DNA of 64,000 bases, taken from Escherichia phage BF15. The notes beneath the pieces were generated by a model. It was not told the origin of the DNA, ran no database searches, and saw nothing but the letters and a program-made list of their open reading frames with translations. Numbering within the stretch: the first letter of the stretch is position 1; each line of letters starts with the position of its first letter. A program made the translations under genes and the position numbers. The stretch is from the sequence record MW822007.1; one strand, 5' to 3'. Shown here one piece after another: positions 2,247 through 17,539 of this stretch.

Positions 2247-4060
2247 TGGTGTTTAACCCTATGCATGATTTCTTTATTTTTACCGAGATTAAATCCGCGT
2301 TCGTTCGGATTTCCCAAATAACCACATGTTCTTCTTATGGTATTCATCTTTTTAGGATCAGTTTCTCCACAAATAGAACAAACAAATCCGTTTTCAGTAG
2401 GAGTCATTTCATGGGTACTTCCGCATGTAAAACATTTATCTACTGGCATATTAACACCAAAATAATCTAAATGTTGTGCAGCATAATCCCACACGGCCTC
2501 AAGACCTTTCAAGTTATTTTTCATATCAGGAAGTTCAACATAAGAAATGTGACCACCTGTCGCAATGAAATGATACGGCGCTTCACGAGAAATCTTTTCA
2601 AACGGAGTAATATTTTCTTCTACTGAAACATGGAAACTGTTAGTGTACCAACCTTTATCGGTAACATCTTTTACGCTTCCATATTTTTCCGTATCGAGTT
2701 TACAGAAGCGATAACAAAGGTTTTCAGCAGGAGTCGAATATAAACTAAAAGCAAATCCAGTTCTTTCAGTCCACTGTTTAAGATGAGCATTCATTTTAGT
2801 TAAAATTTCCTGTCCAATATCACGACCGACAAGAATATTCAATTCGTGAATACCAATGTATCCTAAAGACACTGAACTTCTACCGTTTTTAAATAACTCA
2901 ATTATGTCGTCATCAGGTTTAAGACGAACCCCGAATGCACCTTCTTGGTAAAGAATAGGAGCAACAGTCGCTTTAACTCCTTTTAAGGAACTAATTCTAC
3001 ACATCAAAGCTTCAAAACATAAATCCATTCGTTCATTAAATAGCTCAACAAATTTCTGTTCATTGAACTGTGTTCCAATATAAGAATCTAACGCGATGCG
3101 AGGAAGATTCAGTGTTACAACACCAAGATTATTACGTCCATCAAGAATTTCATTACCAGTCGAATCTTTCCATACGCTCAAGAAACTGCGGCAACCCATT
3201 GGAGAAACAGGAACAGATGAACCAGTGATAGCTTTATTGTTCTTAGCCGAAATGATGTCAGGATACATCCTTTTGCTTGCACACTCTAGAGCAAGCTGCT
3301 TAATATCATAGTTCGGATCGTCTTTATAAAGATTAACACCCTCTTCAACGAACATAACAAGCTTAGGGAAAATAGGAGTTATTCCATCACGACCAAGACC
3401 TTTAATACGATTTTTCAGAATTGCTTTCTGAATCATTCGTTCAGTCCAGTCAGTTCCCGTACCAAATGTAATTGTTACAAAAGGTGTTTGCCCGTTTGAA
3501 CTAAAGAGAGTATTTACTTCATATTCATAAGCTTGGAATGCATCGTATACGTCTTTTTCTGTTTTAGATTGAGCATAATTCAACGCATCAGCGATTTGCC
3601 ATTTTTCTGCATCCTCAATATGTTTTGCATAGGTGCGTTTAACATAAGGAGAAAGTACTTTATCTACATTCGCAAAAGTCGTTCCGCCGTATTGGTGAGA
3701 AGCAACCTGTGCAGTAATTTGTGCCATAATTGCAGTAGCAACGCCAATTGATTTAGGAGTTTCAATCTGCGCATTACCGAGCTTAAATCCGTTCTCAAGC
3801 ATTCCTTTTAAATCTACTAAACAGCAATTAGTAAATGGAAGAGCAGGGGAATAATCAATATCATGGAAATGAATAATTCCGCTTTCATGCGCTTTCATAA
3901 TAAAAGACGGGACCATATTTTTGGCAATGTGTTTAGACACAATACCAGCCATAAGGTCCCGTTGAGTTGGAAAAACACGAGAATCTTTATTAGCATTCTC
4001 GTTTAAAAGGTCTTTATCAGTTTTATGAATCAATCCTTCAATTTCTTTTTCAATTGTCAT
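2243..4060 (-). CDS. nrdD: anaerobic ribonucleoside-triphosphate reductase, intron-less
   Basis: 605 aa continuous ORF; glycyl-radical enzyme; C-terminal Cys cluster CFTCGS...CSICG. Confidence 0.9.
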   Translation of the reverse strand: MTIEKEIEGLIHKTDKDLLNENANKDSRVFPTQRDLMAGIVSKHIAKNMVPSFIMKAHESGIIHFHDIDYSPALPFTNCCLVDLKGMLENGFKLGNAQIETPKSIGVATAIMAQITAQVASHQYGGTTFANVDKVLSPYVKRTYAKHIEDAEKWQIADALNYAQSKTEKDVYDAFQAYEYEVNTLFSSNGQTPFVTITFGTGTDWTERMIQKAILKNRIKGLGRDGITPIFPKLVMFVEEGVNLYKDDPNYDIKQLALECASKRMYPDIISAKNNKAITGSSVPVSPMGCRSFLSVWKDSTGNEILDGRNNLGVVTLNLPRIALDSYIGTQFNEQKFVELFNERMDLCFEALMCRISSLKGVKATVAPILYQEGAFGVRLKPDDDIIELFKNGRSSVSLGYIGIHELNILVGRDIGQEILTKMNAHLKQWTERTGFAFSLYSTPAENLCYRFCKLDTEKYGSVKDVTDKGWYTNSFHVSVEENITPFEKISREAPYHFIATGGHISYVELPDMKNNLKGLEAVWDYAAQHLDYFGVNMPVDKCFTCGSTHEMTPTENGFVCSICGETDPKKMNTIRRTCGYLGNPNERGFNLGKNKEIMHRVKHQ

Positions 4061-4530
4061 TTTAAACTCTTTCTAAGCTGCTTCTTAAATGAAGCTATTA
4101 ATTGTGTTTTGGTGTCAGATTCATTATATTCAAATCCTCTTTGAAGCATCTCAGCCATCATTTCCTCTTTTCCTAAACGAGAAAATTCCTTTGATTTATC
4201 TCCAACGAAGTTAGGGTGAATATTATTTTGGGTGTAATCGGATTTTAAATAAGTAAGTAAATTTTCTAACCATTCAAGATAATCAACACCTTGTCCCTTT
4301 AAGCCAGAACGATTAAATTTGTGCTTCATTTGACCTTCTGCGGCATTGCATAGATTACAAAGCAATCCACGTACCTTTCCTGCTTTTGGTCCATTTAATT
4401 CATGATCATGGTCGAGGTGATTAGCTTGAACATCAGGATTTAGTTCTCGTTGGCAAATTAAGCATTTACCGTTTTGTGCATCATAAAATTTTTGTTTTTC
4501 TTCTTTATATAATTTGCCAGTCAATAACAT
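4057..4530 (-). CDS. 49: endonuclease VII (Holliday junction resolvase)
   Basis: 157 aa; Zn-binding CLIC...CNLC and HLDHDH motif; sequence matches T4 gp49 as I recall it. Confidence 0.85.
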   Translation of the reverse strand: MLLTGKLYKEEKQKFYDAQNGKCLICQRELNPDVQANHLDHDHELNGPKAGKVRGLLCNLCNAAEGQMKHKFNRSGLKGQGVDYLEWLENLLTYLKSDYTQNNIHPNFVGDKSKEFSRLGKEEMMAEMLQRGFEYNESDTKTQLIASFKKQLRKSLK

Positions 4531-5568: not shown

Positions 5569-5828
5569 TTAAAGTATTCCCGCAATTGGTCAAAGCCGCC
5601 AATATGACTTCCATCAGGAGCAAATACCTGAGGCATTGTCAAGCCGATTTGAGTATCACGACCTAGTTTAGTCAGAAGCTCAGCAATTTTCTCATCATCA
5701 AAAACACCTTTTTCCGGCATAATGTTGATAAATTCAAACGGCTGTTTCTTCACGGTCAAAAGACGTTTTGCATTATCACAATACACGCATTTATGAATGT
5801 TGCTATCATAACCATATACTTTAAACAT
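5565..5828 (-). CDS. nrdC: thioredoxin/glutaredoxin
   Basis: 87 aa; CVYC active site; matches T4 NrdC as recalled. Confidence 0.85.
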   Translation of the reverse strand: MFKVYGYDSNIHKCVYCDNAKRLLTVKKQPFEFINIMPEKGVFDDEKIAELLTKLGRDTQIGLTMPQVFAPDGSHIGGFDQLREYFK

Positions 5829-5829
5829 A

Positions 5830-6072
5830 TTATTCCTTAATTCCTAGTACTTGTTTAAAAGTCTCGTCGTAATCAAGACTTTGGCCCGTTTGTTCTTTAT
5901 GTTTGTATATAATATCACTTACTTCTGATAGCATATTTTTATATGAACGAGTTAAAGCAGATTTAAGCACGCTGTATCTATCAGGAAATTTACCGTGTTC
6001 ATTATAATAAGCTATTGCTAATTCACGGACTGTCTTTTCAGCAGCCTCCATATATTCTTTACGCTTGGTCAT
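5830..6072 (-). CDS. hypothetical protein
   Basis: ORF trimmed to internal Met (MTKRKEY...); the longer track ORF overlaps the next gene. Confidence 0.35.
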
Positions 6073-6376
6073 TTTCTTCTCGGTCAAATCGGTGTTTACA
6101 ATGGCGACATTTATAACGAAGATTACTAGTCTGCCAATGGACCAATTGCACCTGTTCAGTTCCACATTCAGGGCAATTAGGAACGTTTTTAGAAGCGCGT
6201 TCGCGGCGTTCAACCATAACCATAATGGCATCCCAAGCAGGAGGTTTAAAGTCTAAATCGTCACAACCATGAATCTTTCCACGCATTTCCAAATCGTCTT
6301 CTTCACCAGCCATAATAATTTTAATTAGACTAGAATTACTTGAAGCTGCAATGTCTTCTAATAGACGCTTTTTCAT
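6059..6376 (-). CDS. zinc-ribbon protein
   Basis: CPECG...CRHCKH four-Cys motif at C-terminus. Confidence 0.45.
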
Positions 6377-7299
6377 TTCAATACCTCAATAGCATTACGT
6401 AAACCATTTGCTTTTGCATTAAGAGCTTTTAACAATTTGGTGTGTTCTGCAATTTGGGCTTCAACTTCAATCAAACGAGCATTGAGATATTCGCGTTCTT
6501 CTTTCATAGTATCATTCCCATGATTGGATTTTGGCGTAGGTTTAAATTCACTAGGGTCCTTTAATTTAATAACAAATTTAGTTTCAAACAGTGAAAGACC
6601 ATAATTCTTATTATCATCAAAGGATTTGACTACATCCATATCAGATAATAACACGCGCAAATTATAAGCCAAAGAACTAATAGTTTCATTGTGTTTATTA
6701 GCTTCGCGTGGTTTCATATACGGAAGATTTTTATATATTTCATGCGGAGCACAAATGATAATTGACAATTCAAATTGTCCATTCTGGGACGATGGAGTGA
6801 ATTTAGCCGTAACCCAGTCTTTTACATTCACATTAATAGTACGGTTATCACCATGACAAAACAGTCTACGAGAATGCTTAAAAAGCATATTCACGTTATT
6901 ATTGAATTCGTGTGAAAATTCACTAGCAAATTTTTCTTTACTATCTTTAGAAAACCATTCTTCTAAATAAGTTCTTTTCACGTCGTTAATAATATTAAAT
7001 GTAACAACATTAGCATTTGATACATTAGTCTCAATGTAGCTTGGATACATAAATTTTTTAACATTATTAACAGCTATCACAGAAGATAGTAATCGGGAAC
7101 GTTTGAACCACTCGAGCAAAGAACCAAGAGAATGTGAATACGCATTTTGTGTATCTTTACAAATATGGTTTTCCCATCCAATATAGTCTAAAAAATCACG
7201 AAGAATATTATTGATTACTGCTCTGTGTCCTATCTGATAATTACGATGTTTAGTAATAAGACTGTCAAAATAATCAATATAATGTTTACGTGTTTTCAT
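6373..7299 (-). CDS. paralog-array protein 1, C-terminal coiled coil
   Basis: 308 aa; starts MKTRKH; C-terminal 45 aa heptad-rich ([37 protein letters not shown]). Confidence 0.6.
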   Translation of the reverse strand: MKTRKHYIDYFDSLITKHRNYQIGHRAVINNILRDFLDYIGWENHICKDTQNAYSHSLGSLLEWFKRSRLLSSVIAVNNVKKFMYPSYIETNVSNANVVTFNIINDVKRTYLEEWFSKDSKEKFASEFSHEFNNNVNMLFKHSRRLFCHGDNRTINVNVKDWVTAKFTPSSQNGQFELSIIICAPHEIYKNLPYMKPREANKHNETISSLAYNLRVLLSDMDVVKSFDDNKNYGLSLFETKFVIKLKDPSEFKPTPKSNHGNDTMKEEREYLNARLIEVEAQIAEHTKLLKALNAKANGLRNAIEVLK

Positions 7300-10802: not shown

Positions 10803-11330
10803 TTATGCGAGTACCGTCTTTAACCGTTCTTCAAACTTCCGAAGAGTATTTTGGCGTTCAGCTCTTTGCTTTTTGTAAGTTTCAATACGCTCTGAAATGA
10901 GAGTGTATCGTTCATTTACTGATTCTTTCATAAAATCAGGAATTTCACGAGAAGCTTTAATCTCGTCAAATTTATCAATAACAGCTTGCTCTTCAGCAAT
11001 TAAGTTATCATACATCAAAATATCTTTCTTGATGAACTCAATATCTTCTTGAGTTACACGAGATAATTTAGATGCTTTATCCTTTTTGTACTGTTCATTA
11101 GTATCACGAGACCAGTGTAATGTACGATTTTTATTCGTATTTTTGTAAATTTCTACAATACCAATCTCATCGATAATAACGATCCAATTCCAACGAGATT
11201 TGTAAATTTGCCCTCCGTCAACCGTGATTTCACCTCCGATTGAGATGTCATTAAAGAACTTGCTTTGCGCTTCAGATTTAAATTTACCATCATTGTAATT
11301 TACCAAGTTGAAAATATCTTTAGCGTTCAT
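10803..11330 (-). CDS. hypothetical coiled-coil protein
   Basis: start set at ATG with GGAGG SD (MNAKDIF); the track ORF extends through the promoter. Confidence 0.5.
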   Translation of the reverse strand: MNAKDIFNLVNYNDGKFKSEAQSKFFNDISIGGEITVDGGQIYKSRWNWIVIIDEIGIVEIYKNTNKNRTLHWSRDTNEQYKKDKASKLSRVTQEDIEFIKKDILMYDNLIAEEQAVIDKFDEIKASREIPDFMKESVNERYTLISERIETYKKQRAERQNTLRKFEERLKTVLA

Positions 11331-11358
11331 TTTGTGTTCCTCCGTAGTTGATAGTTGT

Positions 11359-11388
11359 ATAGTACCACAGAGGAACGGTCTTGTAAAC
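11359..11388 (-). promoter_or_regulatory. early promoter (GTTTAC, 15 nt, TGGTACTAT)
   Basis: conserved block TGGTACTATACAACTATCAACTAC then SD. Confidence 0.5.
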
Positions 11389-11390
11389 AA

Positions 11391-11775: not shown

Positions 11776-12495
11776 TTAGGATTCTTCTAAATGTCTTTTC
11801 TGAAAAGTTGATACCATACTACGATACGGTTCATTTGGATATCCGTGTTTTATAGCTTCCTTTGTAAATTTTCTCCATCCACATTTAGTTTCTTTCCAAA
11901 GCTCGAATAATTCATCTTCATACTGCCATATAGTTAAATGAGAACGCTTTGCAGCTTTAATTCCATTAATATGCTTTTCTTTTACTGCAGGATTGCTTAG
12001 TTTCTTTTTAATAATATTACTAACTTTTCTAACAAAAACCGGGTCCTTATATCGTTGCGAAGTTTTTATTGAAGTGTTTAATTTAGCTTCCGGCGTGGAT
12101 GTGACCTCTTTCATCTTTTTCTTCATATGCTGTATATGATTAGGATTTTTCCATAAATTTATAGAATGCTTTTTGCATTTTATCCTAGTTTCATCTGCAA
12201 CCTTTCCTCCTTCACCCCCGTATGACAGGTTAACACAGTTTTTTCCATATTTCAATTTACCTGCCATGATATATAATATTTCAGCTTGTACCATTTTATC
12301 ATAATTATCAAAAACTTCTAAAACCGTTTTTGACAATATGTGGTCATTTGACACTTTTACACGTTCTATATAATTTCCACTACCAACATACGAATCATTG
12401 ATATTATTAGTTATATGTCGACCATAATAATATTTCTTAACGCCAGTCTTTAAATTTAATATTTCAGTTTTATAGATAGTAAAATATTTTTTCAT
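11776..12495 (-). CDS. GIY-YIG homing endonuclease (Seg-like)
   Basis: N-terminal GIY-YIG-like (FTIYK...YYYGRH), shared GGEGG motif with the segB-like gene at 29672. Confidence 0.6.
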   Translation of the reverse strand: MKKYFTIYKTEILNLKTGVKKYYYGRHITNNINDSYVGSGNYIERVKVSNDHILSKTVLEVFDNYDKMVQAEILYIMAGKLKYGKNCVNLSYGGEGGKVADETRIKCKKHSINLWKNPNHIQHMKKKMKEVTSTPEAKLNTSIKTSQRYKDPVFVRKVSNIIKKKLSNPAVKEKHINGIKAAKRSHLTIWQYEDELFELWKETKCGWRKFTKEAIKHGYPNEPYRSMVSTFQKRHLEES

Positions 12496-13460
12496 TTTAA
12501 CAATACCGTTTCAGCGATTTCTTCCCAATAGTTTTTGTCGGTCATAATAAAGTCAGCAAGATAAAGAGCAGTACGCAGTGAAACATTACGTAAACGGTTA
12601 ACATTGACTTTCATCCATGATAATGCTTTATAAGTTTCTTCATCAGAAAGACCGCGTTTTTGCATCATGTCAGTTGAAAGAATAACATCTTCAACCCTGA
12701 CCATAATTTCTTCATTAGTGTGAACACCCAAATCTAAATAAACTGAGCGGGACACTAATGCTTGTAAATGTGGAGCAAGTTTAGTACCACGGTCTAATTC
12801 GCGGTCAATATCAACGTTTGTGATAAAAACAATCGTTCCTTTAAATTCAAACTCACGGTCAATGCCTTTTTCTTCTAAGTAAGAAGATGCAGTGCTCCAG
12901 CAGACTTTACGGGTCTCTCCAGTGTCCAGAGCAGCTTTCAGAAGATTAAGAATGTCCATATCAGAGAAAACATCCACATCATCAATCAAAAGGACAGAAT
13001 TCTCTTCACGATTATTCCAAAGCTGCTCATAAAGACCGATACCAGAGATTTTACCATTAATGCTTTTATATTCAATGTATCCAATATCATTTGCTTTATT
13101 TAAAGCTTTATCTAAAGAATACGTTTTACCAATACCCGCCGCACCAGAGATAATTAATGAACGAATATTTCCATTAATAATACCATTCGTCATCATTCCC
13201 ATAACATTAAATCTTTTATTAATGCGGGTTTTCATATCTTCATATGATTCTTTAACTTCTTCAACTTTTACACCATCATATGAAATATCTGATTTGTAAA
13301 CCCAAACACCGCGACGTTTACCGTCAATTTCAACAAAAACTTTACCATCTCCTTGTGCATCTACCGGAGCATTATCTGGGAACCATTCGCCTAAGAGCTC
13401 AAAAGTTCCAGAGATTTCTTTACCGAAGTAGATACCCTTATTGATAGTTACAGTTTTCAT
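12492..13460 (-). CDS. P-loop ATPase
   Basis: Walker A GAAGIGKT, Walker B LLIDDVD; start trimmed to MKTVTINKG after promoter. Confidence 0.6.
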   Translation of the reverse strand: MKTVTINKGIYFGKEISGTFELLGEWFPDNAPVDAQGDGKVFVEIDGKRRGVWVYKSDISYDGVKVEEVKESYEDMKTRINKRFNVMGMMTNGIINGNIRSLIISGAAGIGKTYSLDKALNKANDIGYIEYKSINGKISGIGLYEQLWNNREENSVLLIDDVDVFSDMDILNLLKAALDTGETRKVCWSTASSYLEEKGIDREFEFKGTIVFITNVDIDRELDRGTKLAPHLQALVSRSVYLDLGVHTNEEIMVRVEDVILSTDMMQKRGLSDEETYKALSWMKVNVNRLRNVSLRTALYLADFIMTDKNYWEEIAETVLLK

Positions 13461-13496
13461 TTTATTCTCCAAATCCGTATCAGTAGTTGATAGTTG

Positions 13497-13527
13497 TATA
13501 GTACCATAAAGCTTTATGCTTGTAAAC
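13497..13527 (-). promoter_or_regulatory. early promoter (GTTTAC, 15 nt, TGGTACTAT)
   Basis: same conserved block as at 11359. Confidence 0.5.
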
Positions 13528-13548
13528 CGTTCTGTGAAAAAATTTTTG

Positions 13549-13576
13549 AAATAAAAAAGGGAGCCCGAAGGCTCCC
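13549..13576 (-). terminator. rho-independent terminator
   Basis: GGGAGCC-TTCG-GGCTCCC then TTTTTTAT on minus strand after stop of 13579-14592. Confidence 0.7.
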
Positions 13577-13578
13577 TA

Positions 13579-14592
13579 TCATTTATAATAACTTCGGTGG
13601 TTTTCAAGATAAACCCTCTCAAGGAAGTCATCCCAGAAACTCATGTCTACTTTTTGCTGCATACCGTTCTTAGAAGCTTTAATGGATGCTGCTTCTACTT
13701 GATCGACAACATCTTCCAAAAACTCTTGAACAGTTTTAAATGGATGTTTACCCAACTTCACGTCGAGAATAAATGGAGCGTCTTGAAGTGGATAAATCAA
13801 GTCGCCAGTTTTGTAAATTTCCAATAGTTGAAGTCCACCACGACAAGCATGACTCAGAGCTTTCCAGTCAATACCTTCGTTGGCTTCGGCCTTACGAGCG
13901 CGTTCACCGTATTCAGCATCAAGTTTATTCAAAGACTGCTTAAGCTCAATAAGAGAAAGCGTTGTCTGATATTTACGACCCAACACAGTATAGAACGTTT
14001 GCGGGCCTGTTTTCTCATGATTATGGAACACCCATTCACAGAATTCGTTTTCTGGAAGACGATGCTTAATATCTTCAACTTTAGTGCGACGCTGCTTAAT
14101 GGAACCATCTTCTTGGTAATCAACCCACTGGTCAGGGATTTGATTAACTACTTTCAATACATCACGCAATGCAGCCAAACGAGAACCCTTGACACCGTAT
14201 TTAGAAGCTTGCTTGCGGACATATCCTAAATAGGATTTCATGTTAGTCGTATAGAACCGAGAACGATTGTCTTGGATAAATTTCCATACATCAGGTAAAT
14301 CAGATTTAACCACTAGTTCAGGTGGAGTGTGAAGCATATCCAATGCTACAGTTTCACCATCTGCTGCTAATTTAAAGAAATACTTAAGACTGTATAGTTC
14401 ATGGTCAATATCATCTTTAGTGTTTTTAGATGATGTGTTGTTAGTGTTTTTACTCATATGCTCTTTAACATTTCCGATAAGAATATCGCGAGCAGGAGGA
14501 ACAAAGATTTCTTTAAAATCCACATCAGATTCTGGAGTAGAAGTTCCATAAAGATGACTACCAAAATAGCTTTTCATTACTGTTTTCATCAT
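13579..14592 (-). CDS. polymerase-beta-fold nucleotidyltransferase-like protein
   Basis: N-terminal GSHLYGTSTPESDVD (GS-x9-DxD signature); 337 aa. Confidence 0.5.
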   Translation of the reverse strand: MMKTVMKSYFGSHLYGTSTPESDVDFKEIFVPPARDILIGNVKEHMSKNTNNTSSKNTKDDIDHELYSLKYFFKLAADGETVALDMLHTPPELVVKSDLPDVWKFIQDNRSRFYTTNMKSYLGYVRKQASKYGVKGSRLAALRDVLKVVNQIPDQWVDYQEDGSIKQRRTKVEDIKHRLPENEFCEWVFHNHEKTGPQTFYTVLGRKYQTTLSLIELKQSLNKLDAEYGERARKAEANEGIDWKALSHACRGGLQLLEIYKTGDLIYPLQDAPFILDVKLGKHPFKTVQEFLEDVVDQVEAASIKASKNGMQQKVDMSFWDDFLERVYLENHRSYYK

Positions 14593-15050
14593 TCAGCCTT
14601 ATATTCAATAACAGGACATACTTTAGCTTTACGAGCTTTTAAAAATTCGACGATAATAGACTTCTTGGGTTGAATAGGAGGTAAACCTTTATACGCCCTA
14701 TCAATATTTTCTACATGTAAAGCATAATCCTTTTTCCATTTATAATCTTTATATTTTTCATGCAGTTGTGCAGGAATAACAAATGAACCAATAATAAGTA
14801 AAACAAGCAAAATGGCAAGTATAAATGCTGATGGAATAAGAGTCCATAAACTACTAAAAATAAGCCAACGTTGTAAACTTTCTGCGCAGATAATAGTTAG
14901 ACCTGCGAGTATAGTACATCCGAAAAAAGAAACGAAAAATGTAGGAATAACAATAGACCAAAAATACGCGCATAGTGTCTTAGGTCGTTTCCATTCATCA
15001 TTAAACATTTTGAATAATTTATAGTGCCAAGAGCTTTCATTAATAATCAT
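14589..15050 (-). CDS. membrane protein
   Basis: three to four hydrophobic helices. Confidence 0.45.
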   Translation of the reverse strand: MIINESSWHYKLFKMFNDEWKRPKTLCAYFWSIVIPTFFVSFFGCTILAGLTIICAESLQRWLIFSSLWTLIPSAFILAILLVLLIIGSFVIPAQLHEKYKDYKWKKDYALHVENIDRAYKGLPPIQPKKSIIVEFLKARKAKVCPVIEYKAE

Positions 15051-15052
15051 AA

Positions 15053-15574
15053 TTATCCTTTCATTGAAGGTGTAACGGTTGTTAAATACTTAATCATAGC
15101 TTCAGCTTCTGATTTTGATAATGAAATTTCTCCATTGTTTTGACGAATAGAAATAAAATCCGGATGACGGTCACCGCCCGCTTTCAAAACACACATATAG
15201 GTATCAGTTTCATCTTCAATATTTGAAATAATTGAAGCAGTTCCGCATGAATGCGGTTTTTGATAAATCAATACGGCTTTTCTTCCACCGTTTGACTGTT
15301 CATAAACTTTTAACACATCAAACAAATCACTTCTTTTATCAATAGCTAAGATGTTGTTTTCATCTTCAATGTTAAATCCTTCGGATACTTCATAAAGCGT
15401 CACCCATAAATCACCTATATCGATAGTAGCATTTTCCTTTCCATGACTTTCAAGAGTATGACAAATTTTCTTGATTTCGTCATAACTCATTTTAATAATA
15501 TCATCTCCTTGAATAAGGAAGATGTCATTTTTAAATTCAACACGAATTAAACCACTTTCACTTGAAATAAACAT
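15053..15574 (-). CDS. hypothetical protein, paralog of the 15581-16138 protein
   Basis: shared C-terminal motif (A..K.YL..V.P(S/T)M). Confidence 0.5.
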   Translation of the reverse strand: MFISSESGLIRVEFKNDIFLIQGDDIIKMSYDEIKKICHTLESHGKENATIDIGDLWVTLYEVSEGFNIEDENNILAIDKRSDLFDVLKVYEQSNGGRKAVLIYQKPHSCGTASIISNIEDETDTYMCVLKAGGDRHPDFISIRQNNGEISLSKSEAEAMIKYLTTVTPSMKG

Positions 15575-15580
15575 ATTTCC

Positions 15581-16138
15581 TCACTTTGAAATCATAGTTG
15601 GAATGACAGAATCAAGATAAGTCTTTAGCGCAATAGCTTCGTCTTTGGTAAATGTGACAATATGTGATCGAAAATCGTCAATTTGGCGAATAGTTAAGAC
15701 ATCTCCCTCTTCATAACATTTTGATACATTTAAAAGAGTTTCATCATTCTGATTGCAAGCGTTAGTAATAATAGCATTGCAATTTTTGAGCCATTTTAAA
15801 CTATGTTTTCTTTCATTAGAATAATAAAAATATTTAATCTTAGCTATAAAACTATCCCAATGGATAACTGATAAACACATTGACTCACTGTTAATATTAA
15901 ATCCTGGGCATGAAGAATAAAAATGAATTTTGTGCTCATCATTGATGCTTACTATTTTATCAGTATAAGGATATTCAATTTGGGTTAAATGAATGATTTC
16001 ACTAGGCGTAAAATATAGCATATCGTCTTCTTGCGTCAAACGATACATGTTATTTACTTTTTCTATAGCCAATTCACCAAAAAGCGGACTAACTTCTAAT
16101 ACTAATCGTTTCATATTGATTCTCTTCGACTCACTCAC
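15581..16138 (-). CDS. hypothetical protein, paralog of the 15053-15574 protein
   Basis: 185 aa; track ORF begins at a GTG, true start uncertain. Confidence 0.45.
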   Translation of the reverse strand: MSESKRINMKRLVLEVSPLFGELAIEKVNNMYRLTQEDDMLYFTPSEIIHLTQIEYPYTDKIVSINDEHKIHFYSSCPGFNINSESMCLSVIHWDSFIAKIKYFYYSNERKHSLKWLKNCNAIITNACNQNDETLLNVSKCYEEGDVLTIRQIDDFRSHIVTFTKDEAIALKTYLDSVIPTMISK

Positions 16139-16270
16139 AATTACATACTCCTTTGAATAATATCAATAATGTTGTTCACCAGATTATAAGTAAACATTGG
16201 GTAATTATATTGAATCATCACATACACAACAAACAAAACTTTCATTCTCTTCTCCTTGGCAGTTGACAAG

Positions 16271-16303
16271 ATTACTATACCATAACCTTGCCAACTTGTA
16301 AAC
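16271..16303 (-). promoter_or_regulatory. early promoter (GTTTAC, 15 nt, TGGTATAGT)
   Basis: followed by AAGGAG SD. Confidence 0.45.
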
Positions 16304-17120: not shown

Positions 17121-17148
17121 AAATGAAAAAAGTCTCCCGAAGGAGACT
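17121..17148 (-). terminator. rho-independent terminator
   Basis: GTCTCC-TTCG-GGAGAC then TTTTTTCATTTT on minus strand after 17153-17539. Confidence 0.6.
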
Positions 17149-17152
17149 AATG

Positions 17153-17539
17153 TTATTCGAGGGAAAGAAGATATTTACTTTGATAAAACATTCCAGTAAT
17201 ATCATCTATCGTGCTTTGAATGGCTGGAGGCATTTCTTTGTAAATGCTGTTAGATTGGTCTAGTATACGATCAATCATTTTAATTGTGTCGGTAGGAAGT
17301 TTACTAGCATCTGGAATTGAAGGTGTGTATTTTCTACCAGAATACCCCAAATACTGCTCACCAAATTTATCAATCAAATCTGGCAACTCAGAGAAAATAA
17401 AATCGTATGCCTTGTGTCTAGCATAACTTTTAGTTTCAAAATGCGCAGAATGAAAATAAGCTTGTGCAGCCATTAATAAACCTAAGTATTCATCTGCCTT
17501 TGAAGGTTTTCCACTTTGTGAAAAGTCGCTGAATTTCAT
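17153..17539 (-). CDS. rI.-1: conserved hypothetical protein in the rI.-1 position
   Basis: 128 aa; synteny upstream of rI. Confidence 0.5.

Follow-up and report, generated by a model that had tools for sequence, protein, structure and literature searches.

Two adjacent minus-strand genes of Escherichia phage BF15 (sequence record MW822007.1) encode proteins of 185 and 173 amino acids (aa) that, on the evidence of sequence profiles, are diverged paralogs of the MobD.1/Y05I family. The DNA analyzed, referred to here as the window, is a 64-kb stretch (64,000 nucleotides (nt)) of this T4-like Tequatrovirus and all coordinates refer to it unless another locus is named. A preliminary description made from the sequence alone had taken the two genes for a tandem pair of paralogous early genes in whose products no known motif was apparent. 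The two open reading frames (ORFs) are indeed present on the minus strand at 15053..16138 and their C-termini read exactly as they had been quoted. When the proteins were compared to Pfam, the 185-aa protein matched T4_y05I_N (PF24449) with E=1.3e-38 and 132.1 bits and T4_y05I_C (PF24448) with E=6.7e-21 and 74.9 bits, and the 173-aa protein matched them with E=2.9e-32 (111.7 bits) and E=2.1e-23 (82.9 bits), respectively, the gathering cut-offs being 24.9 for PF24449 and 27 for PF24448. In both proteins the domains occur in the order N-then-C. With both proteins placed in a curated Pfam family, the statement that they carry no known motif is out of date. The phrog_1502 profile aligned end-to-end with both, with E=5.5e-80 over residues 12-184 of the 185-aa protein and with E=2.9e-66 over residues 1-173 of the 173-aa protein. 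To avoid circularity, a hidden Markov model (HMM) was trained on 18 sequences, all of them relatives of the 185-aa protein, leaving out the 173-type proteins and a chimera of the two types, and this HMM found the 173-aa protein with 51.8 bits and E=4.6e-18 over residues 12-171. In the reverse test an HMM of the 173-type found the 185-aa protein with 26.9 bits and E=1.9e-10. Thus Pfam, phrog_1502 and the one-lineage HMMs agree on full-length homology, and the possibility raised by the preliminary description, a similarity confined to the last few residues, does not hold. In the family alignment the pair is only about 26% identical overall (N-domain 22%, C-domain 30%), and BLASTP of the 185-aa protein against the 173-aa protein was not significant (best E=6.7), so the relationship of the pair is visible solely through profiles. 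A third y05I copy was not found within the 64-kb window and a search of NCBIfam gave no match for either paralog. The family itself is already known, since Pfam and PHROG define it and hundreds of GenBank records contain its sequences, and therefore placing two hypothetical genes in it changes little.

In the alignment of 24 family sequences all the invariant and near-invariant columns fell within the C-domain, some of them in the terminal YL..V.P.M helix and tail, and stand-alone C-domain genes of about 70-85 aa exist in T-even phages. By this measure of conservation the C-domain is the core of the y05I family. An AlphaFold2 model of the full-length 185-aa protein, obtained with the same alignment, had a predicted local distance difference test score (pLDDT) of 88.8 and a predicted template modelling score (pTM) of 0.69, and the N-domain alone gave 94.6 and 0.85, respectively. 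The predicted order of elements (b, strand; a, helix) is bbbba-bbbba-bbbbba, where units 1 and 2, of four strands and a helix each, make up the N-domain and five strands and a helix make up the C-domain. Each of the two paralogs is predicted to be built of three such strand-plus-helix units. When these units were compared with hhalign, unit 1 was related to the C-domain (E=1.7e-5), and DUF7189 (PF23819) was related to unit 1 (E=5.2e-6) and to the C-domain (E=2.4e-5), whereas unit 2 showed no relationship to unit 1, to the C-domain or to DUF7189. Hence, of three supposedly homologous repeats, only unit 1 and the C-domain are related at the level of sequence. These two and the stand-alone DUF7189 proteins have in common a signature of a Q-E-D-D hairpin plus helix, which in DUF7189 reads as an ItLqQE(D/N)D strand, a strand and a helix. 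DUF7189 differs in being a single unit of about 65 aa and a separate Pfam family, the link being made by profile comparison only with a probability of 76-86%, and the match of the 173-aa protein to DUF7189 was sub-threshold at 23.7 bits against a cut-off of 27. The profile comparisons suggest that DUF7189, T4_y05I_N and T4_y05I_C share one repeat unit. Genes for DUF7189 proteins of about 65 aa were also seen just 5' of the y05I genes in Dhakavirus-like phages (L006 at 2293..2490, L012, L014, L015 and L026).

When 1.84 billion representative proteins were scanned exhaustively with HMMER, only 28 matches to the y05I family were obtained, and these included the most distant members, which a third, alignment-based homolog search had missed. 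In the phage collection the family was found in about 720 records, all of them T-even-like, with hosts such as Escherichia, Shigella, Yersinia, Salmonella, Citrobacter and similar. The 185-type was present at an identity of at least 80% in 413 phage records and the 173-type, at the same threshold, in 433, which among the matches listed were Tequatrovirus-like throughout. The 173-type is equally far from its neighbour (26% identity) and from its orthologs in other genera (22-30%), and in the metagenomic lineage L025 a relative of the 173-type is the sole copy. It is for these two reasons that the pair looks like two old lineages that were brought or kept together and not like a recent duplication in place. 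The 173-aa gene is a second and deep y05I lineage, one that is absent from T4 itself. In phage G4507 the upstream slot has a copy that is 47% identical to the 185-type and it is followed by the 173-type. In six metagenomic contigs of single-gene loci (L027, L028 and L029) a protein, P0011, was found in which the N-part of the 185-type is joined to the C-part of the 173-type. Such a chimera is the product expected of recombination between tandem copies, and P0011 was therefore rejected as an evolutionary bridge between the paralogs, being a recombinant and not an intermediate.

Many Tequatrovirus genomes, for example, GADU22, KK4, HY01 and ime09, match the window region with 97-98% identity, and the minus-strand genes follow each other in the order tk, rI.1, rI, rI.-1, mobD.5 to mobD.2, the 185-aa gene, the 173-aa gene, a gene for a 153-aa membrane protein, nrdC.11 and nrdC.10. 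The features of the unit to which the two paralogs belong are the following.

16274..16302, minus strand: early-type sigma-70 promoter, TTTACA-17-TATAGT with TG (10/12 matches plus TG in a promoter scan).
16141..16245, minus strand: mobD.2 homolog, a 34-aa hydrophobic peptide that aligns with T4 mobD.2; first ORF of the transcription unit.
15581..16138, minus strand: paralog 1, 185 aa, ortholog of T4 MobD.1; N-domain residues 9-110 (15809..16114), C-domain residues 111-185 (15584..15808).
15053..15574, minus strand: paralog 2, 173 aa, the 173-type; N-domain residues 1-97 (15284..15574), C-domain residues 98-173 (15056..15283).
14589..15050, minus strand: small membrane protein, 153 aa, RB69ORF104c-like, phrog_944 (match with E=2.5e-50).
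13579..14592, minus strand: nrdC.11, nucleotidyltransferase of the RlaP family (Pfam RlaP E=1.8e-11, phrog_388 E=1.2e-136), the gene after the membrane-protein gene in the unit.

The promoter at 16302..16274 sits 22 nt 5' of mobD.2 and heads the unit of mobD.2, the MobD.1-like gene, the 173-aa gene and the membrane-protein gene. Sequence alignment showed that the promoter and leader are near-identical to the T4 sequence upstream of mobD.2, a region in which the T4 early promoter Pe57954/Pe57.9 has been reported (PMC6024815). The leader GTTTACAAG...TGGTA.TATA...TCAACT...GGAG...ATG recurs 5' of nrdC.10 and of nrdC.8, so that the T4 early-promoter consensus is found at two further sites of the window, and the stretch that the promoter region has in common with these two leaders is GTTTACAAG...TGGTA.TA..A.CT.TCAACT. 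The 185-aa and the 173-aa genes are tandem, as had been described, being 6 nt apart with a GAGG ribosome-binding site that overlaps the stop codon of the first, and the ATG of the membrane-protein gene is 2 nt past the stop codon of the 173-aa gene. The two paralogs are co-transcribed from a T4-type early promoter. No full match to a MotA-box middle promoter was found within the two genes. The mobD.2 peptide of the window had no match at E<=0.01 in a Pfam search, and its counterpart in L025 matched Phage_T4_Y05J.

The 185-aa protein is about 87-88% identical to T4 MobD.1 and its gene is in the same position, which marks it as the T4 MobD.1 ortholog. T4 MobD.1 (UniProt P39240, Y05I_BPT4) is the namesake of the Pfam family, has been classed as 'early-RNA_early-Protein' and has been detected by mass spectrometry (PMC9697503 supplement). 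The description of the pair as early is thus borne out for the 185-aa gene by a conserved T4-like promoter and leader and by early RNA and protein of its T4 ortholog, and the 173-aa gene would be early by its co-transcription with the 185-aa gene. MobD.1 is also dispensable in the laboratory, as shown by the viability of a T4 deletion from nrdC.11 to mobD.3 (PMC9825161), and the broken copies of T2 and the split or truncated forms of other phages agree with this. The GTG start of the 185-aa gene aligns with the annotated ATG of T4 and has AAGGAG 9 nt upstream of it, and an internal ATG at 16114, giving 177 aa, is the start chosen in some annotations. The 185-aa gene shares its promoter and leader with the T4 locus, and in the product of the 173-aa gene the two domains are arranged as in MobD.1. 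The loci differ in that the single copy of T4 precedes the HNH homing-endonuclease gene mobD, whereas the two copies of BF15 precede the membrane-protein gene. T4 is without the 173-type, and mobD (12430..13209 in the T4 locus, L002) fills the place of the 173-aa and membrane-protein genes (14589..15574 in the window). By this alignment of position, mobD and the pair of genes look like alternative alleles of the slot between nrdC.11 and the MobD.1 ortholog, and the insertion site of mobD has been listed as nrdC.11/mobD.1 (PMC2988022).

What is new here is the linkage of the C-domain to the membrane-protein gene and the existence of stand-alone C-domain genes. When 25 loci were scanned with domain HMMs for the y05I and membrane-protein genes, the distance from the stop of the y05I gene, full-length or C-domain only, to the start of the membrane-protein gene was -10 to +22 nt in 23/23 Tevenvirinae loci that have both, the window included. 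These 23 loci span Tequatro-, Dhaka-, Gelderland- and Karamvirus and several unclassified T4-like contigs, and the gap between the membrane-protein gene and nrdC.11 in them was -3 to 2588 nt. T4 was the sole examined locus with a y05I gene but no membrane-protein gene. In Salmonella phage SEA1 (Gelderlandvirus, L003) there are two cassettes, one of two C-domain genes and a membrane-protein gene (3501..4460) and the other of one C-domain gene and a membrane-protein gene (5763..6487), and in the Karamvirus CC31 there is one C-domain gene followed by a membrane-protein gene. These stand-alone C-domain proteins (phrog_7763 and phrog_10804; for example, gp0101, gp0100 and gp0094 of SEA1 and CC31p103) are like the paralogs of the window in the C-terminal fold and motif and in having their slot directly 5' of the membrane-protein gene, but they are without the N-domain, and SEA1 has three such genes. 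In the P0011 chimera, too, it is the C-domain of the 173-type that is beside the membrane-protein gene. In the 153-aa membrane protein of the window a hydrophobic core of some 70 residues (about residues 25-98) is flanked by positively charged N- and C-tails, and the pI (isoelectric point) of the C-tail was 8.9-9.9 in 4/5 homologs. It was also seen that the first SEA1 membrane paralog ends in ...YQLKYLLTLE, resembling the C-terminus of the 128-aa protein encoded at 17153..17539 in the window (rI.-1 in ime09 and T4). After the membrane-protein gene come nrdC.11 and nrdC.10 in most loci.

The explanation that we favor, to which we give a probability of roughly 40%, is that the membrane protein encoded in the same unit is a docking partner of the y05I C-domain, different specificities being given by the divergent N-domains. 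The C-domain would dock the protein onto the cytoplasmic and mostly basic tails of the membrane protein by means of the conserved helix and tail, [F/L]TK.EA.AL..YL[ND][ST]VIP[TS]M, and the N-domain, which would be optional and fast-evolving, would bring a second binding specificity. Through the two paralogs a single early membrane protein may in this way be connected with two distinct partners from the host or the phage, and the whole module would have an accessory function of the host-range or host-takeover type and not one in core replication. The y05I family is acidic, the pI being 4.2-5.8 in all but one member tested and the net charge of full-length members -3 to -22, and the charge complementarity between it and the basic C-tail of the membrane protein counts in favor of docking.

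Several observations weigh against this explanation. In T4 the membrane-protein gene has been replaced by mobD and yet MobD.1 is retained and expressed, and therefore MobD.1 either has some role that is free of the partner or is on its way out in T4. The membrane protein was found in 915 phage records compared to about 726 for the y05I family, and in an Aeromonas phage that has the membrane-protein gene the gene upstream of it is not a detectable y05I member. Adjacency alone is weak evidence because T4-like genomes are collinear by descent, and what goes beyond simple synteny is only the duplication of the cassette in SEA1 and the contrast with the variable gap downstream. The positive-inside topology of the membrane protein is one that we infer from charge counts only. 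The T4 locus can also be looked at from the other side, because with mobD in place of the second copy and the partner membrane-protein gene T4 may be a poor model for the module. What the docking explanation offers is a cheap and concrete hypothesis for one of many early T-even genes, namely binding of the C-domain to the membrane protein encoded next to it. A broader version of it, which is speculative and to which we give distinctly less weight, is that the y05I C-domain, unit 1 and DUF7189 are one unrecognised repeat superfamily, that the C-domain and the membrane protein form a two-gene early T-even module, and that the duplicated and fast-diverging N-domains are interchangeable specificity heads serving, for example, superinfection exclusion, lysis control or the countering of a membrane-associated host defence.

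Among the other explanations the one that survives best, though we consider it unlikely, is that the y05I proteins inhibit a host protein or serve as its decoys, being acidic and free-standing and acting in anti-defence or host takeover or as nucleic-acid mimics independently of the membrane protein, the two paralogs covering two variants of the target. The genes are early, dispensable and acidic in product, are found only in T-even phages of enterobacteria and are often lost or broken, and, as seen in G4507, the upstream slot holds strongly divergent alleles in one genus; the retention of MobD.1 by T4 without the membrane-protein gene fits as well. However, such an inhibitor leaves the invariant adjacency of the C-domain and membrane-protein gene and the duplicated cassettes of SEA1 unexplained. 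Moreover, no PADLOC defence-system model matched either paralog, a result that excludes only likeness to defence-system proteins, no literature on a phenotype was found, and the ratio of nonsynonymous to synonymous substitution rates (dN/dS) of 0.12-0.18 gives no indication of an arms race inside either lineage.

Slightly more doubtful is the proposal that these proteins are single-stranded nucleic-acid binders of the Whirly, PUR or MRP kind that act as phage transcription or RNA factors, a role implied by the Pfam label 'putative transcription factor'. The topology of PUR and Whirly-type domains is bbbba, and Pur-alpha has three repeats of which two form a domain and the third serves dimerisation. 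In the AlphaFold2 model the N-domain is two bbbba units, and in Foldseek it superposed on the trypanosome guide-RNA-binding proteins MRP1/MRP2 (2gje_D and 2gia_B) with a probability of 0.92-0.96 and a query template modelling score (TMq) of 0.49-0.51, while the full-length model matched Pur-alpha (3k44_B) with a probability of 0.93. Against this, the matches of the N-domain to the PDB were not significant, the best having E=6.8e-3 with a root mean square deviation (RMSD) of 7-8 A, and an unrelated dioxygenase scored equally (TMq 0.53). The y05I family is also acidic and not basic, its negative net charge being unusual in a nucleic-acid binder, although it is a bulk charge only, and no published basis was found for the Pfam label. 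The likeness to the Whirly, PUR and MRP1/MRP2 fold would thus be one of topology and not of membership. Searches of the PDB with single sequences gave no relevant match and the family profile matched no PDB chain even at E<=10. Foldseek of the full-length and N-domain models against the PDB gave no significant match, with template modelling scores (TM-scores) of <=0.53 and E>=7e-4, and its analogues, all repetitive beta-plus-helix structures (Ctf4, the PH domains of Pob3/Rtt106, the DnaN clamp, the dioxygenase, MRP1/2 and Pur-alpha), were rejected as functional evidence. A search of BFVD found only family members and weak matches to uncharacterised phage proteins.

Whether one or both copies are decaying duplicates without a function of their own was considered because in T2 (L004, AP018813, 1937..3016) both y05I copies and the start of the membrane-protein gene are broken into several short ORFs, split or truncated forms are found in fPS-90, in a T4 stock and in TadeuszReichstein, and T4 is without the 173-type. 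In the window, however, both reading frames are intact, and pooled dN/dS among six Tequatrovirus sequences was 0.18 for the 185-type, 0.12 for the 173-type and 0.19 for the membrane-protein gene, which shows that both intact copies, and the membrane-protein gene with them, are under purifying selection. Both types are also widely retained, about 430 records having the 173-type with 90-99% identity and about 413 having the 185-type with at least 80%. Decay is therefore very improbable, and with it the weakest alternative, a chance match of C-terminal motifs between unrelated proteins, is effectively excluded, its probability being close to nil because, in spite of the non-significant pairwise BLASTP, independent Pfam, PHROG and one-lineage HMM alignments cover nearly the full length with E from 1e-10 to 1e-80. 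In T2 the y05I fragments have been annotated implausibly, for example, as 'prohead core scaffold protein' and 'integrase/recombinase'.

A search of the literature for MobD.1, y05I, P39240 and T4p097 found no functional study or phenotype. In the ime09 annotation the upstream gene is mobD.1a and the downstream gene mobD.1, while nrdC.11 is the annotated name of the counterpart gene in both ime09 and T4. In RefSeq the label 'molybdopterin-guanine dinucleotide biosynthesis protein MobD' is found only on homologs of MobD.1 and MobD.4 (for example, NC_019503 mobD.1a and NC_000866 mobD.4). An identity in molybdopterin-guanine dinucleotide biosynthesis was rejected, there being no MobA/MobB-type match in Pfam or NCBIfam. 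The label is a propagated collision of gene names with the T4 'mob' (mobile endonuclease), and this mis-annotation is thereby cleared up.

Some minor features of the region were also observed. Just 3' of the 128-aa rI.-1 gene a GC-rich hairpin, AGTCTCC-CGAA-GGAGACT, is followed by a T-run (17131..17148, minus strand) and is likely the intrinsic terminator between the rI unit and the unit from mobD.5 to nrdC.11. The equivalent site carries a terminator annotation in phage G4507. A perfect 5-bp palindromic hairpin, CCGCA-TGAA-TGCGG, within the coding sequence of the 173-aa gene (15243..15256) was flagged in the scan as terminator-like on the plus strand and is probably a chance occurrence. Inside the membrane-protein gene there is a perfect MotA-box core, TGCTTTA, at 14724, about 130 nt 5' of the nrdC.11 start, which could be a candidate middle promoter. 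The RlaP family (RNA-ligase-associated Pol-beta), to which nrdC.11 belongs, has been characterised biochemically in a 2025 preprint (PMC12776372). The N-terminal extensions of the nrdC.10 ORF and of the nrdC.8 ORF (11328..11390) are read-through of the repeated T4 early-promoter and leader sequence (GTTTACAAG...TGGTACTATACAACTATCAACT). For nrdC.10 the long ORF (12492..13631, 379 aa) includes the extension at 13458..13631, and its true start is probably M58 with the ATG at 13460. Since this extension is translated early-promoter and leader sequence, an early promoter lies within the 3' end of nrdC.11. The nrdC.10 product gave weak matches to P-loop domains of the AAA/STAND type.

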